From positions 13,266,635 through 13,330,634 of the forward strand of contig CAJINV010000001.1 of assembly GCA_905178155.1 (NCBI GenBank): DNA of 64,000 bases, read 5' to 3'. Positions 8,301 through 63,800 of this stretch are shown piece by piece; position 1 is the stretch's first letter; each line of letters begins with the position of its first letter. The DNA is from Amoebophrya sp. A120. Its lineage: Eukaryota > Protista > Dinoflagellata. A program made the position numbers and the translations under genes. The notes under the pieces are model-generated. The model was given only the letters and a program-made list of their open reading frames with translations, was not told where the DNA came from and did not search any database.

Positions 8301-9708
8301 ATTATCCTCGTCTTTGGAACTACTGCGCTCGGTGCGCTGATCCTCCTCTTCCTCTTCGAAGCTCTGGAAGCTCGTGTTTGTGCCGTCAGATCCTGCTCCT
8401 CCCGGTAAAAATGTGACCGGGCGGCTGGTGGACGAGGAAGAGCCTCCTTGCTGCATCCTTCGGTTCCTCATGTTCGAGGTATGGGTAACAGTATTCCCGG
8501 ACGACGCGGTGGAAGACGACATTGCCGTGTTGCTTCGCATTTTGTAGTTCCCCGAGTCGTTGTACGACCAGTCCCGAGTACCTTTACCACCAGTAGAAGT
8601 GTCTGGCTCCTTGCTCTCCGGCTTCTTCAGCTGCCTTGCGATGGCAATCTGGCGTGGCAAGGACTGCACTTTCTTCAGTCGCGTTGGATGACTGACGTCG
8701 TCACAGGCTGCGACGGTCACCTTCGCACGGTTGCAGTGCTTGTACTGCTCCGAAACGCGAAAGCGCCGGTCGAGATTCAGCGCGCGGTGGATCGCCGTGC
8801 GCATTTCGTTCACAATCGTCCTTCCGACACGAAACCGCAGAACCATAGAGTACCGAACGGAAAGAAGCAGCGTCGCAAGGCTGTAGTTTTTGTATGAGTC
8901 GGATGTTTCACTTTCATTTGAACTTCGGGCATCACTAGTATGAGGAACGAAGACACAGACGCGGCCATCATGCACTGAATTGCAAGTCAAGGAAAAGCTG
9001 GAAAACAAACCCAGTACCAGATACTCAGGCTGCACATGTAAAGTTGCGCCAAGACCGGGTGCTCCAAGATCATTTCGTCCGGCAACGGACCTTCGATGAG
9101 CATGGTAAAGGCCACACCCAAGATCAAAGTGTTGACGATCAACACGGTTTCTGCCTTCTCCGTGATCTGCGACCACTCGTCCCGCAGGTTTTCCCGGATC
9201 GCCGAACGCTATGCATTGCAAATATGTCTGGGTCTGGAAAAATTGGAATCTGTATTGCGTGTCTTGCACTCCTGTAAATTCTGTATTGTGCGACCGACAA
9301 AAGCGCGAATTCTTTGTCATGCAAAAACGCAGTTTCTCGTGCGCATTACACATGAGGAAGCGTCCTGAAAATTTGTCATGCTTGGCTGCACTCAGGAGCA
9401 TCCCCAATCATCGCCACTGAGCATCACAAGTTTCCAGACCCAGACATTTTTACATTTGATAAACGCCGCTCGGAATCGATGTTTTCCTCGTGCTGCACTT
9501 TGGCCTGCAGCATCTCGCGGGCATGCTGGTCGTTGCTCTGCTTCACGTCCACGCGGTGAAACTCCTTGTTGGCTTGCGTCTCGCATTCGTGGATGCGAAG
9601 TGATTGAAGAATGGATTCCTTGTGCAGGTGGTTGGCACGCAGGTGCTCGTTGTATTCGAACCCGAGGTTCACCAGCGGCGTCGCCGCGTCGATGAACGTC
9701 GACAACAT
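5323..9708 (-). CDS. Multi-pass membrane protein of unknown function (~1290 aa); 4 exons, one introner
   Basis: Removing introner 9210-9461 (+1 TSD) and GT-AG introns 8881-9017 and 7952-8073 gives one frame: IDSERRSAIRENLRDEWSQITEKAETVLIVNTLILGVAFTMLIEG...SLSICLATLLLSVRY...GDKKSRSRG...FCFMLGTWILLG. The last join is inferred from phase compatibility only. Confidence 0.65.
9210..9461. mobile_element. Introner-like TIR element, family A (252 bp), TSD AACGC
   Basis: Left TIR TATGCATTGCAAATATGTCTGGGTCTGGAAA; right TIR TTTCCAGACCCAGACATTTTTACATTTGATA. AACGC at 9205-9209 and 9462-9466. Removal restores the ORF. Confidence 0.92.
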
Positions 9709-10725
9709 TTTTTTCTAGATTGCTGTCGTGGTGAAGAGAAGAAGTGTTGTCTATTGCATTCTTGCGTACGTAGTTGTACTTGGCTGAGTATTCGATAACT
9801 CACTGATCATTTCAATAGGACCAGCGGGCAGCGCACAGATATCAAGGCGAGACCTAGATGTATTACGACACCGGGCTTATTAAAGAAACTGTAACCCGAC
9901 AAAGCTCGTGACTGACTCCAATTAGCATCAGGTGTATGCTGGTGCTAGGGATCTTGATCTTCCATCTCGCAATCGCGAGCGGAATCATAACTCCGACATG
10001 GCAACGAAGAAAACGAAACACGTTGGGCACACGACGCGTGGCACTCCAGCACAGCTATGCCGATGATCAACAATTATCACGATCACAAATCGCACGAGGA
10101 CTACGTGACATGAGCTGTCAAGAGTCAGGATCGTCTTCTTGCGTGCACCAATACCAAGCAGCTATCTCCTCCATGCGATTCTCCACTTCTCCTGTCATAA
10201 CCTACACCCTCGACCTTCGGTCCGACCGCAAACATTCCTTCGCATTCCTCTCGATGTCACTCTACTCAGTAAGCAAAATCGAATAAAGATGAAAGTCAAA
10301 GTTCTTGTGACGCGAAAAGGAAAACAAACAATGGCCGCAGTAGACGTATCCTCCTGCGAGATACTACCCACGAAGTAAGCACATTGTGCCAGTTCGTCTC
10401 AAGAATTGCAAAAGAAAATGCAAACGCGTTGAAAGCGCTTGTCCTTCATGAAATGCAAAATCTTGTGACAATTCGTTTGCGTGATTTTTTACCCGAGTGC
10501 AACATCGTATGACAGTTCATTTGTGACACAAGTTGATGTCAGTAAACGTTCATGATTATTTTCATTGTGGTGAAGTAGTACAAGTAGACCATCGGCACGT
10601 ATCATGCGCTTTTGAAATTCATCTATCAGTCTACAGTTATTGCTGTCTCTCATTATGTGTGTTTATGTATCTGATTGATTCTCATCGTGAGTGCAGTATC
10701 ACTTCACAATATTTCATATTTCCTT

Positions 10726-13387
10726 TCAAAGGAATCTCTTCCCACCTCGTCGCCCGCCTCCGCGCTTTTTCACCCGGTTGTTGTACGTCGCCACCGGGTC
10801 CAGCGGTCCGGTTGGCACTACGCCCGCGCGCAAGTCGTGCGCTATTTTCAAACCGGGATGCTTCTGCAGGCCGAGTCCCTCCGCGAGTTCGTAGGACAAG
10901 ACGGGCATCTGCACCATACCACAGCCGGTCAGGATCAGGTACGCCGCCTGGACGACTTGGTCCTCGGAAAGTTGCAGGACGTTGGTGTACAGCTTGAAAT
11001 GGCTAAGCAACGACGCGAACGCGGCGGCGGCCAACGAATTCATGCTGGTCGAAGACACCCACGACATTGTCGCTGCATTCAGGGCTTCGGAATAGTAGTA
11101 CCGTTGCGTGGTATCGAGGAAGTCGACGGTGTTGCGGTTTGTTGTTGAAAGTCGTCCTCCCGATCGGAAGATTTGTTGTTCTTGTTCTTGTGCGCTACTA
11201 GATAAGGAACCTCGCGACCTCGTCGGTTCGGAATTTCTTCCAAGAAGATCATTTGTTCCCGGGGGCAGCGAAGAAACGACATTGTCCGGCAGCACACCAG
11301 CGAGCTGAAAATTCGCACTGAGAACTTGGACAAACTTCGCCTCGTGGTGCGAGAGCAGTAGGTGTGCGCGGCCTGTTTTCCCGGCCCGAGCGGTCCGCCC
11401 CACTCGGTGCACGTACTGCTCGAAGTTGTGCGGCGCGCAGAATTGCAATACCAGGCTTACGTCTGGATAATCCATACCGCGGGCGGAGACATCACTGGTG
11501 AACAGAATCGACGGTTTGCCGTTCGTGCGGAACTCGCAACTGGTGCGCAAGCGCTGGTGCGCGTCCTTGCGGCTGTGGATCTCTAGTACAGGAAAGCGAA
11601 GCAGCTCGCGGAAGAAGGCTGCCATGAACTGTGTAAGTCGAGCGGTTGGGAAAAAAACCATGATCCGGTAATTGCTGGGATTCTGCTTCAACTCCTCAGT
11701 GAGCGCGTAGTGGAGCGCTGGAAGTAAGGTCTCGGCAGACACAAACTCGGCACTTTGATGCATCTTGTCGGTCCGGAGGTAGGTGCTGTCGTTGTTGTTC
11801 TCACTGGCGTCGCAAAGATCATCATCTACTTCTTCGTCGCCCCACTCATCCGTCTCGTCGTGGTTCTCCATTTTTCCAGAAGGTTTTCGATGGTCTGGTG
11901 CACGCCCATTTTCAGCGTCCTCACCGGCGCGCTCCTGGTCACACTCGACCCGCACCACGGAGCCGTCTATCCAGGAAAAAAAGTGTGTAAGTGTAACTTT
12001 CTTTGAGGAACGGCATCACAAATTTGCTCTACATGACAGAGAAAACCTGTCATGCATGGTTTGTAAAGGAAAACACACATGAAAATAGGACTTCATGGCT
12101 GTCTGGCATGACAGGTGTAACTCTGTTGCATCTTCTGCAACACAAATTTACACTTACACACTTTTTTTCTTGCATACCGTCGATGTAGCGCGCAATGACG
12201 TTGGTTTCCAGCGTCGCCGGCAGTGTGGCAGAAAACAGTAAATACCGCAGATTCGGGTTCTGGTTCGCGGTGGTCAAGTAGGAAAGGAGCCGCTTGAGGT
12301 CACCCAGAAAGCCCAAATCGCACAGTCGGTCGGCCTCGTCGAGCACTACGATTTCCAAGTGCTTGAACAAATCGTGGAAGAACAAGGTCTGCTCAAAGTG
12401 GTCCAGTAATCGCCCGGGAGTGGCGATCACGACATTTGGCTTGCGCTTTTTCAGCTCCACACAGTCCATTTTGCGCCCGCGCAAGCCGCCCACGAGGCAG
12501 CACAAACTTGCGTGCGCCGACTCGTGTGGAGGGTTTGCGGCACCTTTGTTGGCAGGGCTAGTGCTGGAAGTTTGCTTTTTCAGTAACGTCTTTTCCGCTT
12601 CGTGGGCGATTTGCATCGCCAGCTCCCGCGAGGGCGCAATTACCAACGCGCGCACACCGGGTGGCGGTATTTCCGTCATTTCCTCATCCTTGCTTTGGTC
12701 AGATGCAAGGAGCGCCGCGGACTCAGCACTGCATCCGTCAACAACTGATGCGCCGTGGTCAGTAGTTGCCCGACTAAAGAGACCAGGCCCTAGGCGCGGA
12801 TCCCCAAGCTGTTTTAGGATAGCAAGGAGATAGCACAACGTCTTGCCACTCCCAGTGGCGGCGCGCACTAGAATAGACTTGGCATCTTCCCGGAACAGCA
12901 CCGGCAGCGCGTGCCGCTGCGTGTCGGTAAATTTGCGAAAGCCGAGCAGGGGCTCGAGGACGGTATCCCGCAGAGTCCTCAACATCGCATCGTCGGGATT
13001 CCGTTTCGCCGAGACGCTGGAAGCGAACGCAGCGATGCTGCTGGCAGCAGGATCTGCAGGCCTTGCTGTCGCAACGGACGGAGTACTCTGGCAATTTTCA
13101 TTTTCTCCGAGCGGCGCCGTACCGCTCGCCGATTCCGATGCACGGGGGCGATACACCACTTTGCTCACCACACCACGGCTTCCGCCCGGAGGAAGAGGGA
13201 AAATCCGATTGCGCCATGACGGTGGAAAAATCTGACGGCGGCTTGCCGAAGGACAGGGGAGCAGAAGATGTTGGAACCCACCGATGCGGCGCCGAAGTGT
13301 CGAGGATCCGGATCCTCGTAAGTGTAGATGAATTACCATTCTCCTAGCCCCGGCGTATCGTCGCGTATGATTTTCATTTTCTATCAA
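10726..13387 (-). CDS. DEAD-box RNA helicase (MSS116/RH31-like), split by an introner
   Basis: Motifs AATGSGKT, PSRELA, TPGRL, DEAD, SAT, then ARGMD and YVHRVGRTARAG. The halves fuse as ARYIDGSVVRVECD after introner removal. Start codon uncertain. Confidence 0.9.
11968..12176. mobile_element. Introner-like TIR element, family B (209 bp), TSD CCGTC
   Basis: TATCCAGGAAAAAAAGTGTGTAAGTGTAA...TTACACTTACACACTTTTTTTCTTGCATA. CCGTC at 11963-11967 and 12177-12181. Collinear with the 57063-57271 copy. Confidence 0.92.
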
Positions 13388-28700: not shown

Positions 28701-31167
28701 TCGCCCGCGGTGTTCAACTTTTCTTTGCCGCCCTGTCGCACCGAGCGGATGCGGAAGGGTAATGGCGAGGGTGACATGGCTACCGATGGGCTGGTTGGCG
28801 AACTACTGGCAGGTGTGTTTTCTCCCTCCTTCTTCGTCGCCAGCGGCTCCAGCTTGCGGGGAGGTGAGGAAGAACTGGGGGACGACGGATTTGCCTGCGT
28901 ATTTGGAACTGTTTCCTCTTGCGCAGTCGTTTTTTCTTTTGCGCCTGCTCGACGTGCGCGATCCGCCTTGCGGTTGGTGTTGCCCTGAATTTTCATTTGG
29001 AGAAAAGTTGATGGGATTTCATTTGCTATATGAAGATTCTCTATTTCTTTGGTTACTCGTCGGAAGCAAATGACACACTTGACACGCAGCATCAGGACGC
29101 AATCGCTATTCTGTCTTGCTACCTCGTAATTGAAATCATCGGAATCCGAAGTCCAATCTTCGGCTTCGACGGCCACTGGCTGTTTTTTCGCTTGAGGTTC
29201 CTCGTTTTTCGTCGTAGCCAGGAGATCCACTCCGAAAAATTGCTTTCCGCGCTTATCAGCCACCGGCCCTAGATTGGACGCTGCCTTCGGAGGGGCCACT
29301 GATGCTGCGGCAGGATCCGGTGTGGCTTGCTCCGCACCCTGATTTTTTTCAACGGATAAGTTGCGTAAAATCGAACTAGATAAACGCAACCACGAGCGAA
29401 AAGCATCGTTGAAAGTTCGCGATGAATGTTTGTTTACCTGTGTCGTCTCTAGTGTGTCGGTACTCTGCGCACCGGACTTAGCAGTGCCGCTTTGATCACC
29501 AGTCGAGCTGGTTTCCGCAACTTCCGCTTCGTACTCCGATGTTCCCGAGCCTGAGTCGGCAGCCTCCTCTGGCGGTACAACCGGCCCAGTCTGTGTGCCT
29601 GCGCTTTGTGGTTGCTCTGGTTCTTCCTGCGTTACCGGCAGCGCCGCAGTCGCTCCTGCAGCCGGACTGTCAATCCCGTCCTCCGGCACGTCGCGCAAAA
29701 GAGGTCCGAGAATTTTTGACATTTCATCCTCGCTGCTGTCGTCTGGTACTAAACCTGCTGCAGAGGACGATGAAGCAGCCCCACCGCCCAGAGCCCCTTT
29801 GATGCCGCCCGAGGCCGCGAGCCTTGTCGTCGCTGCGGCTGCTCCGTTGCGCAGAAAGGATGGCGCGGCCGCGCCGAGCGTGTGAACCCGCGCCGGCGTG
29901 CTGGGTTTCGGCTTCGTCGTTTTCGTCACCACGGGAGACATCATCGGAATCTGTTCGCTCTTCACACTGTCCTCATTATCCAACAGATTCACGACGTCTT
30001 GAGCTGCAACAACTCCGACCGCAGTAGCTTTTTTCCCAGTCAAAGCGCTGCTCGTCCCCTCTTGCTGGATATTTTTAACCGCCTCATCGCCGTCGTCGTC
30101 AACCTGGGCGAGCAGATCGCCTAGCGAGCTTTCGTCGTGGTCCTTTGAGGTGTTGTTTCCACCGTTCTCCGCGGGGAATAGCGCGCTCATATCCTCCTCC
30201 TCCTCATCATCGAACGCCGGAAATTTTGCCTTCTCCTGGCCGCCTTGGTCACCGCCCCCTCCGACCCCCGCCGGGGTATTATTCCCGGCTGTGGGGGAAC
30301 TCAGGGGCGACAGTCCCAGCGACTCATCTACCTCGACGTGCTGCCCGCCGGCGAGGGAATCCGCGTCCTCTGCATCATTCAGTGCACCGGCTCCGGGCGT
30401 TTTATCCTCGTCGTCGTCCATCGAAAGTCCCATCTCATCCTCGTCCGCCAGGTCTTCTTCTAAATCCTTCAAGGAAAACTTCGGCAAGCGCTGCACCATA
30501 TCATCCGGCGTCTATCAACTGCAAAAATGTCTGGGTCTGGAAACTTGTAATGCTGCGTTGGGAATAGTGAATGCTCTGTAATGCACAAGCAAGCATGACA
30601 AATATCTGCGCTTCTTTGTGTTGCAATTTTCGCATGACAAACTGCGTTTTTGCATGACAGGCAAAAGGGTCTCTTCTTGGACACGCATCACAAACCGATT
30701 GGTCATGCCAGACAAGCATGACAAATTTGCACTCTTCCAGATCCAGACATTTTTGCATTTGATAGCGTCCGCGCTGGAGACTGTTCCCGCCCCTCGAAGT
30801 AGTCGGATTCGCGTTTGCGCAACTCGGAGACCACGAAATCGTGATTGTAATCCTCCGCCGTGGTGCGAATGTACTTCTTCGGAATCTGCTGCAGCCACTC
30901 GTCCCACTCCTCGTCATCATCGCCTTCCATGTCCTCCCAAAGCCGCCCCGGGGACAGCATCGGGAGATCCCGCTCCTTCCGACGGGGCCACATGATCCTT
31001 TGGTGCGTAGTTCTCGGATGGTCTATATCTTGCGCAATAGTCAAGGTGTCTGTCGCTTTCGCAAAAGGACCACCCGTCGATTTTTTCTTTGCGATCGATG
31101 TCTCTAACGAAAGTCTTAATAAGCGAAGAGCCAACGAAGAAAGAAGTACATACCAAGCTTGATTCAT
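25702..31167 (-). CDS. Very large low-complexity, intrinsically disordered (S/A/E/P-rich) protein containing an introner
   Basis: ORF 30703..31167 fuses to 26867..30499 after introner removal (QSPARTPDDMVQRLPK). GT-AG intron 26802-26946 joins it to 25702..26649. Probable in-frame introns 28985-29122 and 29339-29437. Start uncertain. Confidence 0.7.
30513..30764. mobile_element. Introner-like TIR element, family A (252 bp, opposite orientation), TSD GCGTC
   Basis: TATCAACTGCAAAAATGTCTGGGTCTGGAA...TTCCAGATCCAGACATTTTTGCATTTGATA. GCGTC at 30508-30512 and 30765-30769. Confidence 0.93.
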
Positions 31168-34677: not shown

Positions 34678-36418
34678 TCAAGTCGCCCTTCCTCCAGCTC
34701 GCCTTTCTTGCCGCGACATCCTTCCCGGGGATGGCGAAAATAAAGGCGGCCCGTCGGCCTTATTTTGGCCAGCAGCTGAAAAATCCGGCTGGCCCCGCCC
34801 CCGCTCCGCGCTGTAATCGCTGAAAATACTGCTGGCTTCCTCGTCCTTAAACAGCACGCGACGGCTGCTGTTGGCCGCATTGGGGCTATGCAGACTATCG
34901 TTCTCGTCGTACTCGTCTTCTACGGATTGATCGTCCGCCTGCCCCCCGTCGCGGGTCGGTGAAACAGGACGACTCGGCGTTCGCTCTGCATTCGTGCGCG
35001 CTACATCTGTATTGTTCAGTGTTGACCAATCTTTCCTCAACGTGGTCGAAGGGCAGCGTTTCTTTGGGCTTCAACTTCAAAGAAACACCACAAAACTAAC
35101 ACAAACAGTTTCTCTTGTGGAAGACGTAAACCCACACTCACGAAGCAAAAACAAACATACATGATACCAAGCCGCTTCAATCTTGCGTACAACGCGGTAG
35201 AAAAGCGTCCGCCTAAAATCCAACTATCAAATGTAAAAATGTCTGGGTCTGGAAGAATTCATGTTTGTCATGCTTGTCTGGCATGACCCTTAAATCTGTC
35301 ATGCACATTACCAAAGAGCCCCACTTTTCTGTCATGCAGAAACGTAGTTTGTCACGCAGAATAGGCAACACCTAGAAGCTCAGAAACTTGTCATGCTGAG
35401 CCAGCAATTGTGGCCTCCTCATGATACGCCACGCAGCATCACAAGTTTCCAGACCCAGACATTTTTACATTTGATACCAACAGAGCATGAACAATGCGAG
35501 GGAGCCGACGGCAACCGCAACCCGGAATGCGCCATTCTTCGTGTAGTCCCAAACCGTTCCGAAAACCCCACCCCCGCCTCCACCCCGCTGCGAGGAAGAG
35601 CCGCTCTGGTGCGAGCTACCCGCTCGCGCTCGATGGTGCTGGTGCGAGCGGTGGTGATGGTGCTGCGACGTGGAACTTTCATGCTCTGCCTGCTGCTCGT
35701 AGTGGGCGGCGGGGTCATCGGATGAGAGCAGCGGGTCCACCAGATTCCGAAAGGCGCGGTTAGCGTCCCCGATTGGTCCTGGTTTCTTCTGGACAAATGG
35801 TCTTGTGAGGCCTAAAAATTCGTCATCCTCCGGCGAATTGACGCCCGACAAAATATCGCGCGCTGCGTCCACAGTCGAAGGAGTGAGTTCGGTTCTTTCT
35901 CCGTCTTGTTCAGGACTTTTGGTTATTTTTCGTTGGTTTTCGGCGGACATAATCTCTGCCGAGTCGGGCAACGCTCGTCGTATTATTTGCTGCGATCGCT
36001 GCGGTGTAGAGGCACCACTTTCGGACTGATCATTGCCAAGTGCATCTGCTCTGCTGCCGAAATCACGAGCCTCCGCTGTCCCCGAAGGGAGCAAAGGTTC
36101 GTCCCCAACGTGACTGTTGTGCAGTGTTGTCCCAGCGGTATGTCCTCGTGCTGCTTCCCGCCTCGCATCGGCCTCAATGTCCTCGTTCATTTTGTCGATC
36201 ACAGTCTCCACCGCCTGCACAGAGGGCGGCCGCTCGAGAAGGTTTTGCGGATCGGTCACGGAACCGTCCACGTCCATGTCGGCACGGCGCAGAAGCGAAG
36301 GGTGCTCCGCAGTTGTCGCAGTCGTTAGCCACGGCGACGTGAGAAAAAACGAGAGCGTCGTCGAGCATCTAGCGAAGGAAGGCACTCTCGGCAACGCTGA
36401 TCTCCTGCCGGGCGTCAT
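34678..36418 (-). CDS. Single-pass membrane protein; introner inserted at the TM segment
   Basis: ORF 35465..36418 continues after introner removal as VAVGSLALFMLCWILGGRFSTALYARLKRLGI. A probable GT-AG intron then joins it to 34678..35040. Confidence 0.65.
35225..35476. mobile_element. Introner-like TIR element, family A (252 bp), TSD CCAAC
   Basis: Perfect 30-bp TIR TATCAAATGTAAAAATGTCTGGGTCTGGAA. CCAAC at 35220-35224 and 35477-35481. Confidence 0.95.
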
Positions 36419-38958: not shown

Positions 38959-41716
38959 TCACACCAGTTCGTTGAGGTTGGCAAGATGAATCTTCTCAGG
39001 CGACCACTCCCTATGAGAGTGCACTACTCCCACTTCCCCTCGTTTGTGTTTCACGAACAGCAATACAAGCGTCGCCAAGACTGCAGGTTTTGCAAGACAA
39101 ATACACCCGGGATTGCAGTGCTGTTTGAGCTTCCGGAACTTGTCATGCGAAAAGTGCCAAGAGGCAAAGGATGGATTTGGTATTTTGCATGACAAATGAT
39201 GGGGAGGGGGAGTTGTGCACTCTCATACTCCCAAGTGGCGTCCGTGAAGCTGGCGGACATAACTTTCCTGGCGTAGGCCCGCACAAAGTCCATGATCACA
39301 ACCAACTGCAAAATTTGTGCGGCCATGATAGAATAGCTATGCATTGCAAACATGTCTGGGTCGTCTGGAAGACCAATGCAAGATTTTCCATGAATGTCTG
39401 ACATGAGTGACTCTGAACTCTGTGATGGTTAGAGGGAAACAGAAGATCCTCCTGTCTGTGGTGCAAAAGTGCAGCACTCCAGGTCGTGGAATACGCAAGC
39501 GCAACACAACACATAGGAGCTCAAAAACATGTCACGCTTGCATCAGTGAAGACCCCATCATTGATCGTCTTCCTCATGGTCATCGTTCACAGACTCGCAG
39601 CAAAATTGGAATTTTCCACACCCAGACGTTGGCATTTCATAATAGCCGGTCCAATTGATATCAGGGATGAACCACCACCTGGGCCTGTGGTCGTCTTCGG
39701 GATAAAACTCCTCGGTGGCGAAGCACCTGGTGGTGTGATGAAATGATCGATTCGACTGCTCGCAACTGCAACTTCTAACACCATATTGAATATGGGATCA
39801 ATATTAAACCCCGTATAACCGCTGTAAGGAAGCAAACTTCCGCAACCGCAACCCGAAAACAAGTTTTTGGAAATCAAAGAACCGCCGTTTGAAAAACTTT
39901 CTATGGTAAGAACATATGTACCAGAAAATGAATCCACAGCATCTGCCCACGGTCCAGAAGAGCATGGCGTGTGCCGCCATGGCTTTGATCTTGCCAACCT
40001 TGTATCCCAGAGAAAAAAGCTGGCAGGGCATATTGATATTTGTGATGCAAAAATAAACACACAGAAAAATTTGTCGTGGGTGGCCCCATAGCATGCTGTT
40101 TCGGATATGCAATGCAGATTTTTTTGTGTGTTTATTTTTGCATTACAAATATGCCCTGCCAGCTTTTTTCTGTGTGGTACCTTGTTCATGAGGTACAGCT
40201 GTGGAATGACGCAGAGGCTCTCGCACCACATCCCGATAGCCCACAGGGCGTCAAACCTCCAATCCTGGTTCATGTCCCCTCTGAACGTGTAGCCCGCCCA
40301 GCAGGCAAACAGGAAAAAGGGGAGGAAGGGGCGATCATCGATTCTTCGGGGCGTGCAGGTGTGCGCGTAGCCGCCAACGTGGGGTAGGATTTCCCGCTTC
40401 GCCAGGACGCAGTCTCGCTGCAATCTCGCCAGGGCTTTGGTCACGCTCTTTTGGTTCAGAAACTGCACCGCCTCTCGCTGCAACTGGACCTCCATCGCGC
40501 GCGTCGAGGGAGCCCGTTGGAGGCCGGTGAGTTTGGCGGTTGCGTCCGCGGACACTTTCAATGAGGCTTGCTTTCCGACCAAAAGCAATCCGCGGATCCG
40601 CCTTTCCAAATCCTCGAGCTGCGCGTTCTGTGCCTTCCAGGCGTTCCGGCTCCGCTCTTCGGCAGACAGCCTGGACTTTTTCATCTCCCTCCGCACCGAC
40701 TCGGATTTTTCCGCGTCTTGCTTGAAACTGGTAAACATCAGCCAGCAGATCCCCAGGCAGAAAGAGCACGTGCAAGCTTCGATCGCCGAATAAAAGCTCA
40801 ATCCGGTGCCGTCAATGGGCATATACCCGACGAACAGACACGCAGAAATGAGGCGGGACATGCTCGAAAAAGTCTGCAGTAGAATAAAGGAACGCGAGAA
40901 ACCTGGTTTTGTTTGTTATTTAGTTTTTGTTTCATGTTTATGGTCATGTCTTCATGCGTTTAGTTTTTGTTCCGTGTTAATGGTCTTCATGCGTTTTTGT
41001 CAATCGCACGGGTTGAGAAGTACTAGTACCGGGAGTATACTTGCGTCGAGAGCGACTTCAATTTCAAACACGACGAAGTGACTTGCACATCGCGGATCAA
41101 TGGGCGCCAAGTCGAGCGACGATCCAAAACCAAAATTGTGTCTGAAAAATGCATTCAGGTCGGAGTATAATCGTTCGCTCACACAAAAACTCAAGGTACC
41201 TGCTGCGTTTCCGGTGGAAAGAATGTTGAGCATGATCCCCAGCATGGCAGCGGATTGCATTTTTCGTTCGATTGAGAGCAGTACGCTGAGCTGAAAAAGT
41301 TCCCTGTCCGCTGTGTACAGGAAAAAGGTCAGACCGCAAAACACGAAGGAGTAGAGAGCCCAGACGTAGAAGCGCGCGGCGGCTGTGGTTGACGCCTTGT
41401 CTCGCTCGCCAGGCTGCACAGGTGCAGCATACCCGAACGCTTCCTTGATGCTGCTCCAACAGCTAGCGGGGGACGGAAAAAAGGTTTGTTCCACAACCGG
41501 CCGCTCGGCCCAAACCAAAAGCTTCAACTCCTCGACCCTCTCCTTGGTCAGGTACCGCTCGAGAATGTTGTCGGTCTTTTTCTGAGACGATGTCGTGGAC
41601 GAATTTCTCGAGCGAAAGAAGTCTTCGTCTTGGATCGTTCCAAAACCGTAGTCATCACGAACGTCAAGGGGCCGCCCCTCGAAACAGGCGATGTCGTTGT
41701 AGTTGTAGGCAGGCAT
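38959..41716 (-). CDS. ER lumen protein-retaining (KDEL/ERD2) receptor-like protein; 6 exons, three introners
   Basis: Spliced sequence: NAAGFSRSFILLQ..SRLISACLFVGYMPIDGTG..DALWAIGMWCESLCVIPQLYLMNKVGKIKAMAAHAMLFWTVGRCCGFIFWCFATEEF..DINWTGYSIMAAQILQLVVIMDFVRAY..WEWSPEKIHLANLNELV*. GT-AG introns 40903-41199 and 39727-39921. Confidence 0.8.
39012..39227. mobile_element. Introner-like TIR element, family C (216 bp), TSD CTCCC
   Basis: TATGAGAGTGCACTACTCCCACTTCCCC...GGGGAGGGGGAGTTGTGCACTCTCATA. CTCCC at 39007-39011 and 39228-39232. Confidence 0.9.
39338..39641. mobile_element. Introner-like TIR element, degenerate family A (304 bp), TSD ATAGC
   Basis: TATGCATTGCAAACATGTCTGGGTC(GTC)TGGAA...TTCCACACCCAGACGTTGGCATTTCATA. 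ATAGC at 39333-39337 and 39642-39646. Confidence 0.88.
40003..40179. mobile_element. Introner-like foldback element, family D (177 bp), TSD CCTTG
   Basis: ~65-70-bp inverted arms (AGAAAAAAGCTGGCAGGGCATATT..TTTGTGATGCAAAAATAAACACACA). CCTTG at 39998-40002 and 40180-40184. Right terminus is GTA. Confidence 0.9.
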
Positions 41717-49904: not shown

Positions 49905-51687
49905 CTAATAGTTGTAAGACGTTGAGGTCGTGCCGCCTCCCCTTTGGATCAGAATTTCCTCGTCCCGCGTGAAGGACTTCAGTTCCCCCATTTGCACATA
50001 GTCGTCGAGAATGGTGACGCGGCCGGTCTCCAGTTCGAAAATACTCCCGACGATCGCGACTTCCGGACAGTCGTGGAGGATGTTCTTCAAAATTCCCAAC
50101 TGTTCCACCACGTTGCGACACACGAGGTTCTCCGGCTCCAACTTCCGTTGCACCAGGCTGAGTTGCTTGTCACAGTCGTCTATGGATTGCAAAAATGTCT
50201 GGGTCTGGAAGATTGCAACTTGTCATGCTAAATCCGAATCATGCAGAAATCTGTGTTGCCTGATTACCAAAAGAGGTCCACTTTTGAACAAGTTAGTAGT
50301 AGTAACCATTTGACTCCTGGCGGGTTGGCGTTAGAACAGATTTAGCCTCTGCCAATGCCTGGGCGTTAGAACAGATTTAGCCTCTGCCAACACCCCTAGG
50401 TGGATACTCGCTCCACGTCCTAACTACCACCCGGCCGCATCCGCAAAACCGCTATCGATTGCTTACGCGTAACTACGGCCAGTGGGCGCTACGTGTGGCA
50501 GAACCCCCTTACCATCCAAGCCCGCGAGCAAGGTGGAGTTTCGGTGTGGCCTTGAAGGGCAGAGGCAGTTTCTCATTCTCATGCAGAATAGGCATGAAAG
50601 AGACCGCACAGCCTCCGTCATGCTAGGTCCCGCATTCCAGACCTAAAAAGTCCTGGAAAACCTGCATGACAAGTTCACATTCTTCCAGACCCAGACATTT
50701 TTACATTTCATATCGTCGATTACCGGGTAGCAGCCGAACCACTCACCGTCGTTTTCCAGCGAGCGGCGAATCCAGTCGATCAACATTTTCAGCGGGTCCT
50801 GGCCCGGCAGCGCCTCCGTCTGCGACCTTGTGCGGGTGAGCCGCGTGACACTAACTTCTGAAGGCTCCGACGGAAGGCTCGGCGTACCTCCGTTCAGACT
50901 GTCTTCGCTGTTTACGCGTAGTCGCGGCCTGCTGGAGTTCACGGGCGAGGAGCGCGAAGTGGGCGAAGTCGAACCCGCCGGACGCGGTGCTGAGGCAGCC
51001 GCGATTGCCCCGCACTTCGTGTGGCCCATGACCAAAACAAATTTGGTACCCAGGTGCTGGCAGGCGTACTGGATCTGTAGAAGGTAGTTTTTCCAAAATG
51101 AATCACGCTTGCGACCGCGAAATTTGAGAGAGACAAAAAATGCAACACTGAAGTTGTGCGACTCAAACGCACGTGGATGTGGGTGTGCATCTGCATACCA
51201 CAATCAGTCCATGAAAACATTAGTATACGCTGCCGCCCACACTGGTTCCCACATAGTTTCCAGCGGTTCTGGTCGTGAACATCTCCCCCTCGCACGCATC
51301 ACAGACACCTTGCGGATTGCACCGACTATCCGCGCACCCGATCACCGCCACTGCGGGCCTCTGGCCCTCGGCAACTTGCCGTCGGTGCAGTGCGTTTGCC
51401 CCCTCTGGCTTCGTCTGGAGCAAGCCGTTCATGTAGCGCATATTCCCAGACTCAAGGCCCTTTTTCAGCTCCAGCGCCGTCATTTGCTGGCACAAGTGAA
51501 AGGCGCCCGTGATGGCGCCGCAGTGCTCACACCGTTGCGTGTAGCCCGGGGAGGAGGAGGCACTACTGCTCGGGGGTCGCTGGTCACTATCCGGCGCGGC
51601 GTCGTCCTCGAACTTGCTTGATGGCTTCGAACCAGCAGCCCCGAGCGGCACGGACTGGGTGTGGTGCGCGAAACTCATGTTTGGCAT
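49905..51687 (-). CDS. Beta-class carbonic anhydrase, interrupted by a 532-bp introner
   Basis: Zn ligands in IGCADSR and GHTKCG. GT-AG intron 51075-51228 (GS|IQYA). After introner removal it reads YPVIDDCDKQ..IVGSIFELETGRVTIL. Confidence 0.9.
50181..50712. mobile_element. Introner-like TIR element, family A2 (532 bp) with nested insertion, TSD TCGTC
   Basis: TATGGATTGCAAAAATGTCTGGGTCTGGAA...TTCCAGACCCAGACATTTTTACATTTCATA. TCGTC at 50176-50180 and 50713-50717. Confidence 0.92.
50294..50558. mobile_element. ~265-bp nested insertion inside the introner (possible retroelement 3' end)
   Basis: Absent from the homologous 262-bp copy at 57324-57585. Has (TAG)3 at one end and a 29-bp direct repeat at 50327-50355 / 50362-50390. 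Confidence 0.6.
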
Positions 51688-52953: not shown

Positions 52954-55900
52954 TCACGCTATGACCTGCGATTTCCGCCCTTGTGAGCCGAGGAGTTTTT
53001 TGTACAGCCCGTTCTTGTCGATTAGTTCCTGATGTCCTCCTTGCTCGAGCAAAATGCCGTCGCACATCACGCAGATCAAATCGCAGTTCTGGATCGTGGA
53101 TAAGCGGTGCGCGATCGTCACGGTCAGGCGGTTTTTCGTGTCGAGCTTGTCCAGCGTTTCCTGCACCTCCTTCTCGCTCACCGAATCTAGCGCACTAGTG
53201 GCCTCGTCCAGCAGCAAAATCTGCGGGTTGCGCATCAGCGCGCGCGCGATCGCAATCCGCTGCTTCTGGCCGCCGGAAATTTTGTTCCCCCGCGGCCCCA
53301 GCAACTCGGTCCACGTCAGTTGGTTCGTCCCGGGCGTATCCCCGATGAAATTCACGTTTGCCTGTTCCGCGACCCGCTTCACGTCGGCAGCGCTGAATTT
53401 GGGTCGTTCGTCTACTGGAACGCCGTACAGGATGTTCTCCAGCGCATTCAAGTTGAACAGCACCGGTTCCTGCCCGACGTACCCAATCGACAGCCGCCAT
53501 TTGAGCAAATTCACCGCGGTCAGATCGGCGCTGTTATTCAGGGAGATCTTCCCCTTGTTCACATCGTAGTACCGCATCAGCAACGCCATGATGGTCGATT
53601 TCCCGCTCCCGGACGGCCCGGCGAGCGCGACGGACTTCCCGTTCTGTAACGACAGAGTCAGCCCCTGCAGGATCGGGACGGTTGGCCGCGACGGGTAGGA
53701 GAAAAACACGTCGCTGAAGTCGATTTTTTCCATATCGTAGGAAAAAAGTGTTTCACTGTAAGGATTAGGATTTTGCAAGCTTTGCATCACAAGTTTGTTC
53801 TACACCAAAGAGAAAATTTGCCATGCGAGATTCCTAAGGGAAAACACAGCCAAATCCACTGTCTTGCATGTGTGGCAAGACAAACACTTCTCCGATACAT
53901 TTTCTGCATTACAAGTCTACAGTGAAACAGTTTTTTCTTGCGATATTCCAGTGCCGGCGGGTCCGGCTTGTTCCCGTTGCCCTCCTCGGTTTGGTCAATC
54001 AGAGGCACCCGGTCGGCCAGCTCGAAAATGTCGTGCGCCGCGGCCTTCGCCTTCGCGATGGACGGCATGGCGGCGCCGGCTTGCCCCGCACCCATGCCCG
54101 CAAAGATGATGCACATCACTGCCTTGAACATATCGCCGGGGGCCAGCCCCTCGTCCCGCATCAGCACCGCACCGTACCAGAAGCCGACCACGTACACGCC
54201 AAAAATGATTCCGTTGGAGAAGCCGAAGGCGAAACCGGACGGTAACGCCTTCTTCACCTCCTTGTCACGGACGCCAACCACCGCGTTGGAGTAGGTCTTC
54301 CAGAAGTCGTGCTCCGCACGCATGGCGCGCACGGTTTTCAGGTTCAGCACCACTTCCGCCATGATGCCGCCGCTCGCAATCACCTCCGGCGATTCGGATT
54401 CCCCGCCCATACCCATGATCACCACGAAGAGGATAATCATGGCGATAATCAACGGCGGCAGGCACGCGGTCACGACGGCCGCGAGCTTCCAGGAGGCGAT
54501 GTAGGCGAAGGTGAGGCCGCACACGATCGCGGACAAGGTTTCCACCTTTACGCCTAATTGTTCACCGGCGATGTAGCTCAAGTCGGAGCACTGCGATTCC
54601 AGTGCGGCCGTTAGCTTCCCCGGCGTGTGCTCCGGCTCGTCGAAATAGGCCATTTCCTGTTTCAGGTAGGTGGAAAACACCAAACGTCGCGCACGCATGG
54701 TCATGTAACTGCCCGCGTAGGAGTAGCACCCGTTGGCGAAGCAGTAGGTCAACGGGGCGACGAAACCAATGATGCAAAAGAGCAAGACGGACTTGTTCAG
54801 CTCGTCTTGCATTTTGTTTTTGTCGACGATGTAAAAATCGGTCATCGCTTCGATCAAAATGTAGGCGCAGAGTGGCTGGTAGGATCCGTTGCACAGGGAG
54901 AAAAAGAACCCCAGCGGGTAGTACATCAATTCGTACCGCGTGTTCAAACTCAGCAAGCGCTTCATGGGAACCTGAGAGAAGATTAATTTTGGTGCGATAG
55001 CATCCAGAATGAGACTTCTCACTTTGCTTCTGTAGAAGCAAGTTAGATAGAGTGACACATCACAAACTTGGAGTAAAGTGAGCAAAACGTAGGGTAGTGG
55101 ACATTCTCATTTGTACCGTGTATTCCTTCTCGATCTTCGCAAGCCTTTCCTTTTCCTTCTCCTCTTGCGTCTTTAAAACATCCATCGCCATGAGCCGTTC
55201 CTTCGACGCTGACCGCCCCAGCGTCGCCTCTGCAGCGGGGGTCCCATCTGCAATCGAGCCCTCGGTGACCGCGCCGGCCCCGTCTGCTACGGACATATCG
55301 ACAACGGTGGCGCCCTCGGGTGCACGACTCACCTGCCGCGAGAGCTCTCCGTCCTTCGAGGGAATCCGTTCCTCTGCCATGGAAAGCGCTTCTTGCGTTT
55401 CGGTCAACCGGTAGTAGCCGCCCTTCAGTGCCAGCAGCTCCTCGTGCGTCCCTTTCTCCGCGACAGTGCCCTGCTGCAGGAAAAAAATCTGGTCGCAGTT
55501 CCGCACGGTGGACAACCGGTGCGCGACGACGACAACCGTCAAGTCAGAGTTTTTTGAGAGGCTATCGATCGTCTCCTGCACTAACCTTTCACTCTGGTAA
55601 TCCAACGCCGACGTTGCTTCGTCCAGCAATAACAACTTCGGCTTGCGCACCAGCGCCCGCGCAATCGCGATTCGCTGCTTCTGTCCGCCGGAGAATTGCG
55701 ACCCCGCGGTTCCCGGAAGCGTATCCAGCCCCTCGGGCAAACCGGAGACGATATCCCAGATCTGGGCCTGCTTCAACGCGTCCTTGATGGCCTCATCGCT
55801 GGGCCGGTTCTTCAACCCAAAACACAGATTTTCGCGGATCGAGTAATTGAACAGCACCGGTTCCTGCGCGACGTACCCGATTTGCGACCCTAAGGATTCA

Positions 55901-57757
55901 AAACTCAAGTCCTTCACGTTGATCCCGTTGTAGCAAATCGAGCCGCCGCTCACGTCGTAGAACCGCTCAAGCAGCTGAATCATCGTCGACTTACCGCAGC
56001 CCGATTCGCCAACGAACGCGACTTTCTGTCCTGGGGACACCGAGAAAGACACCCCTTTCAAAACACTCACGTCTTTCCGCGTCGGGTAGGCGAAAGTCAC
56101 GTCGGTCGCGTCGATCCGCAAAGCCCCTTCTCCCTCGAGCTCCTTGGTACCCGGAAGCACGACTGGCTTCTCCACGGTCATCATCCACTTCAGATTCTTG
56201 AGCGCAGGTTTTGCCTCAGCGACCGCCTGGATCCAGGGCGCCACACTGCCGATGCCGAACATGCCCATCAGAACGCAGAAGAAGACCTTCATCACGTCCC
56301 CGCCCGTAAACGCCTCCCCGGTCTCCTGGTTCTTCACTCCGTCCTTCACCAAAATTGCCCCGTACCAGAACGCCAAGCCGTAGAGCAAAAAACACACACC
56401 CCACAGACTCCCGACCTGCAGGCCCACGCGCCCCCCGGACCGCGCTTTTCCGGCCCGGGCGTACTCCAAATGCTCCCCGTACCGCTCCAATTCGGACTTT
56501 TCCGATCCAAACGCCAGCACCGTTTTCACCGCTCCGAAAACCTCGTCCGCGACCGCGCCGGCTTTCACGTAGTACTTCATCGTGCCCCCGTTGATCTCCT
56601 GCAGCGCCATCGCGAAGTAGTACGCGGCGAGCCCCATGAAAGGAATTCCCGCGGACAAAACCAGCGCTAACCGCCAGCTCAAGGCAAACGCGAAGATAAA
56701 TCCGGCAATGAACTGGGCGAGATTCTGCACGGCAAGTGCGAAGTTCTTCCCGAGCGCGTCCTTGATCTTGCGCACATCCGTCATCGCGCGGGACGGCACC
56801 GTCATCGGGTCCTTTTCGTCGAACCACGAGGCGTCCATGTTGAGCACGGCTTTGCAGTAGGCTTCGCGGAATTTGCAGGTTTGTCTCGACCCGGCGACGT
56901 CGTAGAGCCAGGTGAAAATGGTCGCGGTAATCCAGCAGACGATCCCAATCACGCCGAACCAAACGAGCAAATCCATCATTTTGTCGTACATGTCGTTGGC
57001 GTTCATGATCCCGACGTCGAAAACCGCACCGAATACGTACGCGATTGCCGGCTGTCCTACGCTATCCCACGAAAAAACTGTTTCACTGTGATGGTTTTGC
57101 AAGATCCGCATCACAAGTTTGCTACACATGACACAGAAAATTTGCCATGCGCGCTTTCCAAGGGAGAACACGCTTAAAAGTCCAATGCCTTGCAGGTGTA
57201 GCAAGACAAATAGTTCTGTGTTCCATTCTATGCATCACAAGTTCACAGTGAAACAGTTTTTTCTTGCGATATACGCCGTACAGCGTAGCGTTGAACCCGC
57301 CGAACAGGTAGCAGGCCTTGTCCTATCAAGTGTAAAAATGTCTGGGTCTGGAAGAATGCGCGACTTGTCATGCAGCTTTTCCATGACCCATGAAGCCTGG
57401 AATGCAGGACCTAGCATGACAGCTTCTGCGCGATCTCTCTCATGCCTATCCTGCATGAGAAACTCCCTCTCGACTTGGTCAAAACTGGGCGACTTTTGGT
57501 AATCATGCAACACAGATTTTTACATGCTTCAGATTTAGCATGACAAGTTCCAACCCTCCAGACCCAGACATTTTTACATTTGATAGGTCCACCCCGTCTG
57601 CAAATTGAAACAGGTCCTTGAAGCCCACCATGGAGTAGTCCTCCTTCTCCGCCTTTTCTTTCGCACCATTCTTGTCGTCCTTCGCGTCTGGCTGGGGCTT
57701 GGTCGGTGTCACCACGTTGCCAGCCGGAGCGGCGGCGGGGTCGTACGAAGACGCCAT
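52954..57757 (-). CDS. Full-length ABCB1/MDR (P-glycoprotein-type) ABC transporter with three introners and one GT-AG intron
   Basis: Two TMD-NBD halves (GESGCGKST/FSGGQKQR/LLLDEATSALD and GPSGSGKST/ISGGQKQR). Joins FADGVDKACY, LYGVGQPA, ALEKIDFSDV. GT-AG intron 54972-55116. Confidence 0.93.
53733..53945. mobile_element. Introner-like TIR element, family B (213 bp), TSD TTCCA
   Basis: TATCGTAGGAAAAAAGTGTTTCACTGTA...TACAGTGAAACAGTTTTTTCTTGCGATA. TTCCA at 53728-53732 and 53946-53950. Confidence 0.92.
57063..57271. mobile_element. Introner-like TIR element, family B (209 bp), TSD TACGC
   Basis: TATCCCACGAAAAAACTGTTTCACTGTGA...TCACAGTGAAACAGTTTTTTCTTGCGATA. TACGC at 57058-57062 and 57272-57276. 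Confidence 0.93.
57324..57585. mobile_element. Introner-like TIR element, family A2 (262 bp), imperfect TSD TGTCC/GGTCC
   Basis: TATCAAGTGTAAAAATGTCTGGGTCTGGA...TCCAGACCCAGACATTTTTACATTTGATA. Flanks at 57319-57323 and 57586-57590 match 4/5. Confidence 0.9.
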
Positions 57758-58406
57758 CGTTCTTGTGGTTGCTTTCGGTTTCGCGTTAACTCTACTTTCC
57801 GAATGCGGCGATGGGTCACATTTGCTCGCAAAAAAAAAAATAAATGTTCCGTTTATTTCTCCGAATTGGGTGGAACGAAGATGACGCAGCAGATAAGTAA
57901 ACGAGAAGATGTTGATACGCGAGACACTACCGTAAGTTTTTTACCACGACACCGACGCCCTGTTGACATACGAAACGCAGTTTATTGAGCGCAATACTGA
58001 AAACGAAGGAAATGCACCTCCACGTGTGTAAGTAGCACCGCAAGAAAACCAGATTCATGACCCTTACCCCTACCCAGACCGACTCCGAATGAAGTGTGCG
58101 AGTGGGAGTGCGAAAAACCAGTTAACTATTACAAACAACCACGACTCACAGTTTGCGATGCCGATGGTGATGCCCCCCCTGATTACATTGCATCTATCGT
58201 TGCTAGACGAAGGAAACATGAGCCATGAGTAGACCATAAATGGTTGCTGTAGAAGCGAACAGAATTTTCTCACCCATCAAGACAGTATCTGTAGGTCGTC
58301 ACCTTTTCAGCGTCCTGTCGTCGAGTAGTCAAACATAATAAACGTTATGTGAATGTGTCAAAAGCATGAAGCTATGTTCGTCCGTCCAATTTGAAAGAGC
58401 CAGGCG

Positions 58407-60857: not shown

Positions 60858-63800
60858 TCACAACAGTTCCGACGGCACCCCGCGCTTTCCAAACTTCTGC
60901 AAGGCTGTCATGATCCGCAGTAGCGCCCCCGGTGCGGCGGACTTCGTTTCTACCGCCGCAGTCGATGCTGCTTGCTTCGATGGGCTGGATTTCTGCTTCG
61001 CCGACCGTAGCAGACTCTCCCGACTAATGCGCATGGACGGCGACAGACTGCGGAAGGAATTCATGCTTGTTCGCACAGGTGTTGAAGCAGGCTCAGCAGT
61101 TGTGCTTTCCGTTATTTTCTGCTGCTCCTCCTCGCCACTGCTAGCCGTTGTCGTGACCAGTTCCCCAAATTCGGACTTCCAGGCCTCCTCCACAAGCGGG
61201 AACTTATGCAGGTGCTCTTGCACGACGGAGCTGTCGAACCGCTCGAGCGCCGACAGCCCCCCGCGAACCTCCTCCACGGACGGGGGCGGGGGGTCGAGCT
61301 TCTTCTGCTTCGGTTTCAGCCAGTCCGGCATCTCGTCGTAGACCCGCTCGTTCTGCACGCGGATCAGCTTTTCCCGGACCGGTGGCACGAGCGCGAGTTG
61401 CAGGTTGTTCGCCTCCGGTTCCTCCACCTCGTCTACAATTGGAGATAAAAGTTTGTAGTCCACGTCGTCTTCGGCGAAACTGGAGCCAATTTCCTTCACG
61501 GAGTCAATCACCTCCTTCTCCTCCTCGATGGTCAGCGGCCGCGGCTTCGGCGGCTTGAAGGGCAACTTCGCGCGCGTCGGTTTTTTCGCGGACTTCACCC
61601 GATGCTGCGTGAACGCCTTTCCTAATTGCGCCATCGGGATCACGGAGCGCGGTCGTTCCAGTTTCTTCTTCGTCACCGCCGGCGGCGGCTCGATGCGCAC
61701 CACCGCGGGCGAGGAGACCGCGCGCTTGTACTTCTTCGTGTCAACGATCGGGTGGGCCGGGAAATCCTCCGCACGTATGGCGCTCTCAACTGTTACATTC
61801 TCAACTGTTACATGATTTGTCATGCAAATTTACCACCAAGATCGCCACGATTAAGCTGCTTCGCATGACAAACATCCGAAGGGCTAAACAGGATCTAAAT
61901 CTGTGCCAAATCTGTAATGCAAAAGGCGCATCCTTCCTCCTTTCACTTTCGCCGTTCTTGCATTACAAATCCACGTAACAGTTGAGAATGTAACGTTTGA
62001 GAACGCCATAGCACGGTAAACGTCCTTTGAATACGCCGTCCAGAAACAGCGCGGGGAAACCAACTCGACACCCTTGCCCGGTATGGAACTGTCAGGATCG
62101 AAATCGACAAAATCGAAAAATTTGTAATGCGTGAAATGTAGAGCACGTATGGCCTGTGTTGGGGAGCAAGCAAATGAGACCGGTGGCAAGCCTGTTTAGG
62201 GGAAGGCGTTGCGCTGCCAGAGTACCATGACAGGAGCAGTCTTCTTTGCCCAAACAGCATGACAGACTGGATTTTAGTGCTTCCGAAATTTGTCATGCGC
62301 CACTTGGAAACTGAGGCTCCAACTGGTATCGATTTTATGCATCACAAGTTTTTCGATTTTGTCGATTTCGATTCTGACACTTCCATACCCGGACTTGGGT
62401 TGTTAAAACCAATCACATACGCCGGATCCTGCAGGAGATAAACCTCGATTTCCTCGTCCGGACAGAACTGCTTGAAAGTATGGAGTCTGCGGTTGTTCAG
62501 CGACCAGAGTGATCCGTCCTTCTCGTTTCGAATCACCCAGATTTTCGGAATGTCGCGCACCTGCGTGACGCCCTGGTCCAGCTCGTTCAAAGTCTGGTAG
62601 ATGGACCGCCCGTCGTGGAATCGAGTCCGGATGCTGCCCTGCGTGAAGTTGATGTTTTTCGGTTTTTCCCAAATCACCACTTTGAGAACCTTCCTAACCG
62701 GCGCCTTGTAGACCGGCGTGGGACTGAGCGACGCAGCGGCGGAACGCGCTCGTGAAGTAGAACGCCGCGGAGTTTGGAGCACTTGCAGTTCGGAAGATTT
62801 CTTGTCGTCTGTGAGCGTTTCGTGGCCAGAGTTTTCTGCGATGCTGGCATCGGCCTTGTTTTCCTTCTCAACACGAAGCGCGATGTCGCTTTTCGTCACG
62901 CGGAGCGCGTGGTCTTGCGGATCGGCTGTCCTGTTGCTTGTTTCCGGTTTCGTTTTGCTGACACCCTGCAATCGCAGTTGGTCCAAGACAGGCACAACCG
63001 GATTTGCTCGATACTGCTGATCGTTGAAGGCTGAGTGTCCCCCCTGCGACGTGATTCGGGACGCGGCCACCGGAACTTGGGCCTCTGGGGGAATGTGCGT
63101 CTGATGCGGCTGATACACAGCCGGGAGCGGTTTCATCTCGTCGCCTGCCATCAGGCTGCTGAGCATGGTGAACTGGGCAGGCTGCAGCGCACTCATCATG
63201 ATCCGGTTTTGCGTTGCAACCACCTGCGCACTCTGCGCACGCCGCATCTGCCGCTTCTTGGCCTCGACGTCGTCCTGCATCACTACTATATCACGGTTTT
63301 CGTCCGACTGCTCTTCTTCTGACGTCGTGTTCGGCGCGGTGGTTGTGCCATTCACACCCCCTCCCGCTTGTGCTGCTGAACTCGGTCGCAATGCAGATTG
63401 CCCTTGGACGTACGTATTTTGATGCTGGCTCACCATCTTGATGTGTTTCCAAGCAGTTTTGCTCTTGTCTTCTTTGGTTTTCGAAGGTGATGGCGCTGCA
63501 CTACCAGACGCTGAACTTGACGACACCGCCCCAGCAGACTGCGGTCGTGATTTCCGACCACCAGTAGACGCTGCGGGTCTACCCGTTGTCACAGACTGCC
63601 GCTTCAAGCTAGTACCGAGAAACAGGTCCGAGCTGTATCCAAGCGCTGCAAGTTTCTCTTCGGTGAAGGCGGCGATGGAAAAGTCCTCCTGCTCTAGGCT
63701 GCTGTGCTGCCTATCCTTATCGTTATTCCTCTCTCGCGTTGTCGTAACTTTCGTACCGTCCTGCCGCTCAATGACGTACTCTTCATCGGTCGGCGTTTCA

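Follow-up and report, generated by a model that had tools for sequence, protein, structure and literature searches.

Inverted-repeat elements with a constant 5-bp duplication as non-canonical introns in Amoebophrya sp. A120, and a possible hairpin-guided route out of the pre-mRNA

How tens of thousands of introns without GT-AG borders leave their transcripts in the Amoebophrya lineage is the question addressed here. The material is a 64,000-nt stretch of the Amoebophrya sp. A120 genome (contig CAJINV010000001.1, positions 13,266,635 to 13,330,634; the window in what follows, numbered from its first letter). It holds 13 short elements with terminal inverted repeats (TIRs) and a flanking 5-bp target-site duplication (TSD), which interrupt coding sequence and which, at each of the seven elements covered by transcript-like contigs, are missing from the product together with exactly five further nucleotides.

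Elements and host genes in the window

The recognised genes and the eight RNA-supported GT-AG introns of the window all lie on the minus strand, like the long co-oriented gene blocks published for Amoebophrya. Long minus-strand frames make up about 64% of the element-free window. Pfam supports four of the genes that carry elements, in agreement with the original prediction made from the sequence: a helicase (DEAD/Helicase_C), an ABCB1-like gene (ABC_membrane/ABC_tran), a beta carbonic anhydrase (Pro_CA) and an ERD2-like gene (ER_lumen_recept), while the remaining host genes have no Pfam match. All 13 elements sit in minus-strand reading frames (P ~0.003 under independent insertion, an assumption that holds only in part).

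The original prediction had listed the starts and lengths of 13 elements, and recomputation returned the same values throughout. An independent scan of the window for TAY..RTA ends, with an inverted-repeat score over 28 nt and a duplication with at most one mismatch, recovered exactly these 13 and no other; each of 10 shuffled windows, in which perfect duplications only were sought, yielded none, and duplications of 4 or 6-9 bp gave no match in the window. Every element has inverted repeats at both ends. The left end reads TAT in 13/13 and the right end ATA, except for one end of the element at 40003, which reads GTA/TAC as had been anticipated. A 5-bp TSD had been claimed for all of them; it is perfect at 12 of the 13, and the element at 57324 matches at four positions out of five (TGTCC versus GGTCC). 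The elements fall into about six to seven families where about six had been proposed. AAA occupies positions 11-13 in 10 of the 13, a full fit to the published A120 end logo, and in a larger related set described below, which is enriched for family 1, the frequency of A at these positions is 0.89-0.94. The termini differ by eye from the euglenid CDG/CHG signature, and Rfam returned no match for the elements.

Family 1 is represented by three elements of 252 nt, at 9210..9461 (flanked by AACGC at 9205-9209 and 9462-9466, in a gene that matches nothing in Pfam), 35225..35476 (CCAAC, with a 30-nt perfect inverted repeat) and 30513..30764 (GCGTC), the last in the opposite orientation to the other two. 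Further members are a 262-nt copy in the ABCB1-like gene region at 57324..57585 (TGTCC at 57319-57323, GGTCC at 57586-57590), a degenerate 304-nt copy in the ERD2-like gene at 39338..39641 (ATAGC) and a 532-nt copy with a long inner insert in the beta carbonic anhydrase gene at 50181..50712 (TCGTC). Family 2 comprises 53733..53945 (213 nt, TTCCA) and 57063..57271 (209 nt, TACGC), both in the ABCB1-like gene, in which exons as short as 47 nt are left between elements; a relative of this pair lies in the helicase gene at 11968..12176 (209 nt, CCGTC), between DEAD and Helicase_C. The ERD2-like gene holds two more elements, at 39012..39227 (216 nt, CTCCC) and at 40003..40179 (177 nt, CCTTG, the one with a TAC end). 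The last two are found at 61776..62010 (235 nt, GCACG) and 62082..62387 (306 nt, CCCGG), the latter recognised by its anatomy and reading frame.

Taking out an element with one copy of its duplication restores, at each of the 13 joints, a minus-strand frame without stops, as predicted, whereas a retained element brings an in-frame stop in 12 cases and a frame shift in the thirteenth. The expectation that most of them could not be spliced as GT-AG introns was borne out when all equivalent cut positions were enumerated: a GT-AG register is available to the element at 40003 only, and the other 12 offer neither GT-AG nor GC-AG, so that they lack the ends of a canonical U2 intron. The element at 57324 could be cut as GA-AG, and the one at 53733 has no register with GT, GC or AG.

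Element joints in RNA-like and DNA-like contigs

Evidence on the fate of the elements comes from sequencing runs, chiefly as assembled contigs; of eleven public ones, X1, X3-X6, X9 and X10 were compared with the window. Four runs (X3-X6) stem from one sample whose RNA nature is a guess and not on record; their contigs skip eight ordinary minus-strand GT-AG introns, that is, they behave as spliced RNA. The comparison fully covered seven elements, and those at 9210, 11968, 30513 and 35225 lay outside the compared regions. At all seven, which lie within 38450-58400, the contigs of all four runs show the gap of element plus 5 nt that had been forecast: 221 nt at 39012, 309 nt at 39338, 182 nt at 40003, 537 nt at 50181, 218 nt at 53733, 214 nt at 57063 and 267 nt at 57324, where four bases can slide. 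Near the element at 61776 an RNA-like contig piece stops at 61770 and so shows one half of the predicted joint. The main RNA-like contigs are fully skipped, with a summed depth of up to 204. The elements at 50181 and 57324 are relatives in opposite orientation and both are skipped, and ordinary GT-AG introns alternate with elements at distances of 77-83 nt in the same gene. Removal is exact at 50181 too, despite the insert, which itself is repeated in the DNA-like run introduced below. Two raw RNA runs (X9 and X10) placed just 2 and 4 partial reads and were uninformative.

The imperfect duplication at 57324 gives some information on the cut. In the transcript T57319 is kept and 57586 is lost, so the base beside the 5' TAT falls within the removed part and one of the six possible registers is excluded. 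Other imperfect duplications were considered as markers of the cut register and set aside, with mismatches at all positions and 57324 the only informative case.

The contigs of a further run, X1, cross the GT-AG introns unspliced and X1 is therefore DNA. They extend 22-28 nt into eight element ends at an ordinary depth of 39-46, and no X1 contig showed the 537-nt joint, the one element joint among the matches listed. X1 is a single DNA-like run from one stage, may be the source of the window assembly and so is not independent of it, and its contigs lose rare variants. Summed X1 depth on the elements reaches 10^4 to 2.6x10^5 against about 45 elsewhere, a sign of heavy repetition that gives no copy number. 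A single-copy-depth X1 contig also joins 57271 to 57063, where a family-2 element is followed after just five letters by the start of another; such a head-to-tail pair lies at some other place in the genome, and hardly any exon would remain between its two introns.

Genes that retained these elements could not function; the elements are kept in DNA, and the transcripts lack element plus 5 nt. Removal at the RNA level had been thought most likely, and the gaps in spliced-looking contigs together with the elements kept in DNA-like contigs favour it over the DNA level; with insertions blind to orientation and target, ends predicted to pair and element plus 5 nt absent from the product, we regard it as very probable.

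Two other origins of the gaps have to be set against this. They could arise in the tube, when a reverse transcriptase jumps a hairpin between direct repeats ('falsitrons'), the mRNAs keeping the elements or losing them in some other way. Strong hairpins with short direct repeats are the known signature of that artefact (PMC8240250), the RNA evidence is presumably all based on cDNA, and 'template switch' finds no match in the main text of the study that described the A120 introns (Farhat et al. 2021; PMC7789003). Such gaps would, on the other hand, be expected neither in main contigs that are fully skipped at depth nor at 57324, which is skipped with just four matching bases; and 12 of 13 elements stop the frame of genes that are long and undamaged, with complete Pfam matches to either side, which obliges the cell to get rid of these elements. 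We consider the artefact very improbable. Still less probable in our judgement is excision from a working copy of the genome, in the manner of the internal eliminated sequences of ciliates, by a transposase that takes out the element and one duplication. The transposon anatomy and the TA-containing ends would suit it, the DNA and RNA runs may differ in life stage, and contigs drop rare variants; but the DNA-like contigs enter elements unbroken at eight ends and hold no excised path in that one run, imperfect duplications are tolerated, and the RNA-like runs also hold contigs that join element ends to other flanks, be they precursors or carried-over DNA. Syndiniales are not known to have a separate germline nucleus, and excision would thus be inherited as loss.

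Related elements and the mode of insertion

A 20-nt end pattern retrieved 150 related loci, all from one assembly in a metagenome collection. Their elements are 76-97% identical to those of the window, and the two sets have no flanks and no sequence outside the elements in common. The loci contain 288 distinct elements with a median length of 262 nt, 245 with perfect and 43 with one-mismatch duplications, in a set biased to family 1 by the search pattern. Many end pairs with at least two mismatches were excluded from the 288, and the true density in the related assembly (L001-L079) is higher than counted. A codon model with the window as its training set assigned the strand. It returns minus for 13/13 window elements (a result that is not independent), and its calls agree in 263/263 pairs within a locus. 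About 177 of the 193 elements with sufficient flank score as coding.

The related set confirms the constancy of the duplication, with 278 raw matches at 5 bp against at most 6 at 4 or 6-9 bp and 1 at 6 bp. Insertion is blind to the target sequence. The oriented duplication bases equal the coding background at all five positions, apart from a slight excess of G at position 5 (0.34-0.39 versus 0.29), and the flanks of related elements yielded no motif. Among the 161 orientable elements of the 245, GT-AG-capable registers number 10 where random insertion would give 6.2, any AG register 80 versus 78.3, any GT 77 versus 72.2, and neither GT/GC nor AG 37 versus 41.5. Insertion is equally blind to orientation: the 102 of these 161 that align to a window element divide 52 to 50 relative to the transcript, and the two ends, sorted by transcript direction, are statistically alike over 30 positions, one position reaching P 0.02.

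Inside the ends, 32-44 nt from the terminus, lies a word, TTGT(A/C/G)ATGC, that recurs across families. It is found 30 times in 3.4 kb of window elements and once in the 60.6 kb outside, and its core stands near an end in 175 of the 245 related elements. A preference of this motif for the 5' or the 3' end was looked for and is unsupported (5 versus 0 in the window, 25 versus 15 in 185 related elements, P 0.15). The original prediction of one shared system for several families is thus supported by this common motif together with the constant 5-bp duplication. When family-1 elements are anchored on the inner core, TAT is present at 220/232 ends and 15/109 duplications are imperfect. Duplications therefore decay, and a perfect repeat is not required. 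Among the imperfect duplications of the related set, mismatches are spread over positions 1-5 (9, 6, 4, 6, 4) and none creates a stop.

Elements also tend to lie close to one another. The distance to the neighbour is 40-79 nt at 80/367 element sides, against 11.7 expected from distances above 120 nt, an excess that is overstated since pairs are counted from both sides and the far rate takes in non-coding DNA; only 11 sides fall at 0-39 nt, and gene-level clustering cannot account for this dip. Close neighbours occur in the window as well (57272-57323 and 62011-62081), and L001-L079 hold a few pairs below 35 nt. A 10.5-bp period in the spacing was sought and rejected (R 0.14, P 0.21, n=79). The clustering at 40-80 nt may reflect footprints of chromatin or of proteins, the chromatin of this lineage being unusual.

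A fixed duplication, conserved ends, a common subterminal word and free orientation are the look of non-autonomous cut-and-paste elements mobilised by one transposase. The elements have the traits of miniature inverted-repeat transposable elements (MITEs), namely TIRs, a fixed TSD, small size, no open reading frame (ORF), many copies and both orientations, and they are likely to be non-autonomous DNA transposons of this kind. One integrase-like transposase acting in trans, binding the TAT end and the inner TTGT(A/C/G)ATGC, may have inserted all families, by a 5-bp-stagger insertion into GC-rich coding DNA that would often fall 40-80 nt from an older copy. No autonomous element or transposase was seen in the 64-kb window and 406 kb of related loci, which extend no further than 3 kb from the match. 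Family-1 elements whose normal ends enclose a long foreign insert occur in the window (the 532-nt element, at 50290-50580) and in two related loci, L074 (2991-3962, 972 nt) and L048 (3305-3935, 631 nt); these two longer true copies contain short frames only and no evident start-to-stop gene. Pattern scans aimed at an autonomous element returned single matches, 0 and 5 viral and 22 prokaryotic, and a partner end accompanied none of them.

Two other repeats lie in the window. The one at 59520-60255 is a multicopy repeat of a different kind, about 735 nt long and lacking a 5-bp duplication; a Methyltransf_16 gene has its likely start codon 6 nt downstream of the repeat's end. Read on the minus strand, 60255-59519 has the form GTATGT...TAG and could be a GT-AG intron in the 5' untranslated region; its length, and its length alone, recalls the A120 families fam26 and fam71 of 720-730 nt (Gozashti et al. 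2025; PMC12130899). The other, intergenic at 43917-44673, contains pieces that also turn up in other transcripts (with loose ends at 43917, 44029, 44052 and 44332), includes a frame of 114 codons that matches AP2 weakly (E 0.002, below the cut-off) and is perhaps the remnant of another mobile element.

Leaving the transcript, and known systems

With exon sequence, GT/AG and strand-specific inner sequence all dismissed as the signal, the symmetric ends remain, and the constraints (five extra nucleotides in every case, targets and flanks without bias, insertion either way round, a motif common to the families and tolerance of mismatches between the duplications) narrow removal to a structure-guided cut. 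The explanation to which we incline, with restrained confidence, is a hairpin-guided removal of MITE-like elements from the pre-mRNA. Once transcribed, the ends of an element would by prediction fold onto each other as a long stem that closes on TAT/ATA; computed folding, with z of -8.2 and -2.5, has the ends paired. Cuts would then fall within both copies of the 5-mer, their position fixed by the distance to the stem and not by GT/AG. A cut in each 5-mer at matching stem offsets yields the observed product and tolerates mismatched duplications. The least certain step is the catalyst. It may well be the ordinary U2/U5/U6 core of the spliceosome, with recognition of the site passed from U1/U2AF to a stem-binding factor, a proposal we hold somewhat more readily than its contrary. 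Either end, read as a 3' end, has a U-rich run and often the word GCAT(G/C/T)ACAA 32-44 nt upstream, an arrangement that, judged from the sequence, resembles a branch-point layout. A120 possesses nearly all spliceosomal proteins, and U1 snRNA was not detected in it (Farhat et al. 2021; PMC7789003).

Several points weigh against this explanation. The branch-like word is missing (more than one mismatch) at the 3' end of 56/185 elements and shows no preference for that end. Spliceosomal chemistry normally needs terminal G residues, and roughly one in four of these introns has none to offer. Lariats, circles and end chemistry were not observed, and the role of the spliceosome in these introns stays a proposal. 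Mismatches between duplication copies are synonymous in 16/29 cases, above a model with one free copy (P 0.01-0.11), and would fit a variable cut. The RNA evidence consists of contigs of the one sample with a guessed label, and no transposase was found.

The principal alternative accepts the same elements and removal at the RNA level and assigns the work to a non-spliceosomal endonuclease and ligase, of tRNA type, of IRE1/RtcB type or a domesticated transposon protein, making a 5-nt staggered cut measured from the stem. Removal that ignores GT/AG, ends of full two-fold symmetry and a removed length equal to the DNA stagger would all follow naturally, the failure to detect U1 in A120 (PMC7789003) points the same way, and the nonconventional introns of euglenids are likewise bounded by a stem, with machinery that the available text does not establish (PMC12501133). 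Yet the spliceosome is complete, no candidate enzyme came to light, and elements and GT-AG introns stand 77-83 nt apart in the same gene; the idea is possible, and we hold it only tentatively. With equal reserve one may picture a dedicated, two-fold symmetric RNA excision machine, distinct from the spliceosome and perhaps derived from a transposon end-binding protein, that reads the TAT stem and the TTGTNATGC motif. Were this true, the machine would reverse on RNA, at any exon position and in either orientation, an insertion made with a 5-bp stagger, whatever the exon sequence, and would serve as a general 'undo' for inserted transposons. Alternatively, the usual spliceosome, slightly relaxed, could draw a half-site from the duplication (A + G giving AG, G + TAT giving GT), only such insertions surviving. 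In the window this looks attractive, where 9/13 duplications begin with G in transcript direction (P 0.003) and 12/13 offer GT or AG; but in 111-198 related elements G at position 1 stands at the background level of 0.25-0.29, usable registers are not in excess, and the element at 53733 offers none and is skipped all the same. An AG acceptor formed by the end A and the duplication G was accordingly rejected, and selection for half-sites is hardly probable as the explanation, provided that the related assembly behaves like this genome. If the hairpin-guided reading is true, an intron independent of sequence and orientation would be a new rule of splicing and possibly a scarless RNA tool, and imperfect duplications could map the cut site genome-wide from ordinary RNA sequencing (RNA-seq).

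The element class itself is already published. Farhat et al. (2021; PMC7789003) reported 29,850 RNA-supported non-canonical introns of A120 in 1,954 families, and the available text does not establish a mechanism. The original prediction cited that study rightly and understated the likeness, which extends to the same TAT-start logo and, for one family in later work, to a 5-bp TSD and TA/TA termini under a Ginger label. As in the window, those introns have inverted repeats of TAT, seven variable bases and at least three A, direct repeats of 3-5 nt (5 bp in the legend of Fig. S19), no fixed splice dinucleotides and RNA-seq support; their mean length is 240 nt, the genes are co-oriented and the GC content is 51.2% versus 52.4% here. 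The elements of the window are probably the same. The published account differs in taking the repeats as variable and the families as unrelated, and in arguing against mobilisation by a transposase. The fixed rule of five extra nucleotides, the blindness to orientation, the common inner motif and the 40-80 nt spacing are constraints added here, which were not found in its text, figures apart ('spacing' and 'subterminal' have 0 matches in the main text; PMC7789003). No later work on the removal mechanism in A120 was found in the literature searched, most subscription papers lying outside it. Gozashti et al. (2025; PMC12130899) list 58 A120 families, mostly as 'TIR DNA, unknown superfamily', with lengths of 209, 234, 252, 260 and 305 nt as in the window, a likeness of description and not of sequence. 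Their fam38 is labelled 'Ginger; 5-bp TSD, TA/TA termini' and has ORFs resembling proteins of long terminal repeat elements; their automatic TSD calls range from 2 to 6, unlike the constant 5 bp here, and the available text gives no removal mechanism (PMC12130899).

Among transposons at large, the TA..TA termini and the GC-rich targets without sequence preference recall IS3EU/GingerRoot, which have an integrase-like transposase (PMC10045372, PMC6839031). These are kilobases long, are not described as introns in the text available and duplicate 6 bp (PMC10045372, PMC6839031); with 278 matches at 5 bp and 1 at 6 bp, an assignment to them was rejected, as was one to Ginger1 or Ginger2, whose termini are TG..CA. 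The MITE introners of Micromonas and Aureococcus share TIRs and a TSD, insertion into exons and net-neutral removal, and have GC-rich and linker-biased targets; unlike the elements here, they have two canonical splice sites, of which the element provides one and the duplication the other (PMC9860276). The nonconventional introns of euglenids have another signature, of CAG/CTG type, and are not shown in the available text as TIR transposons with a fixed duplication. Like the elements of Amoebophrya, they lack GT-AG borders, have paired ends and are cut at a position set by its spacing from the paired motif (PMC12501133).

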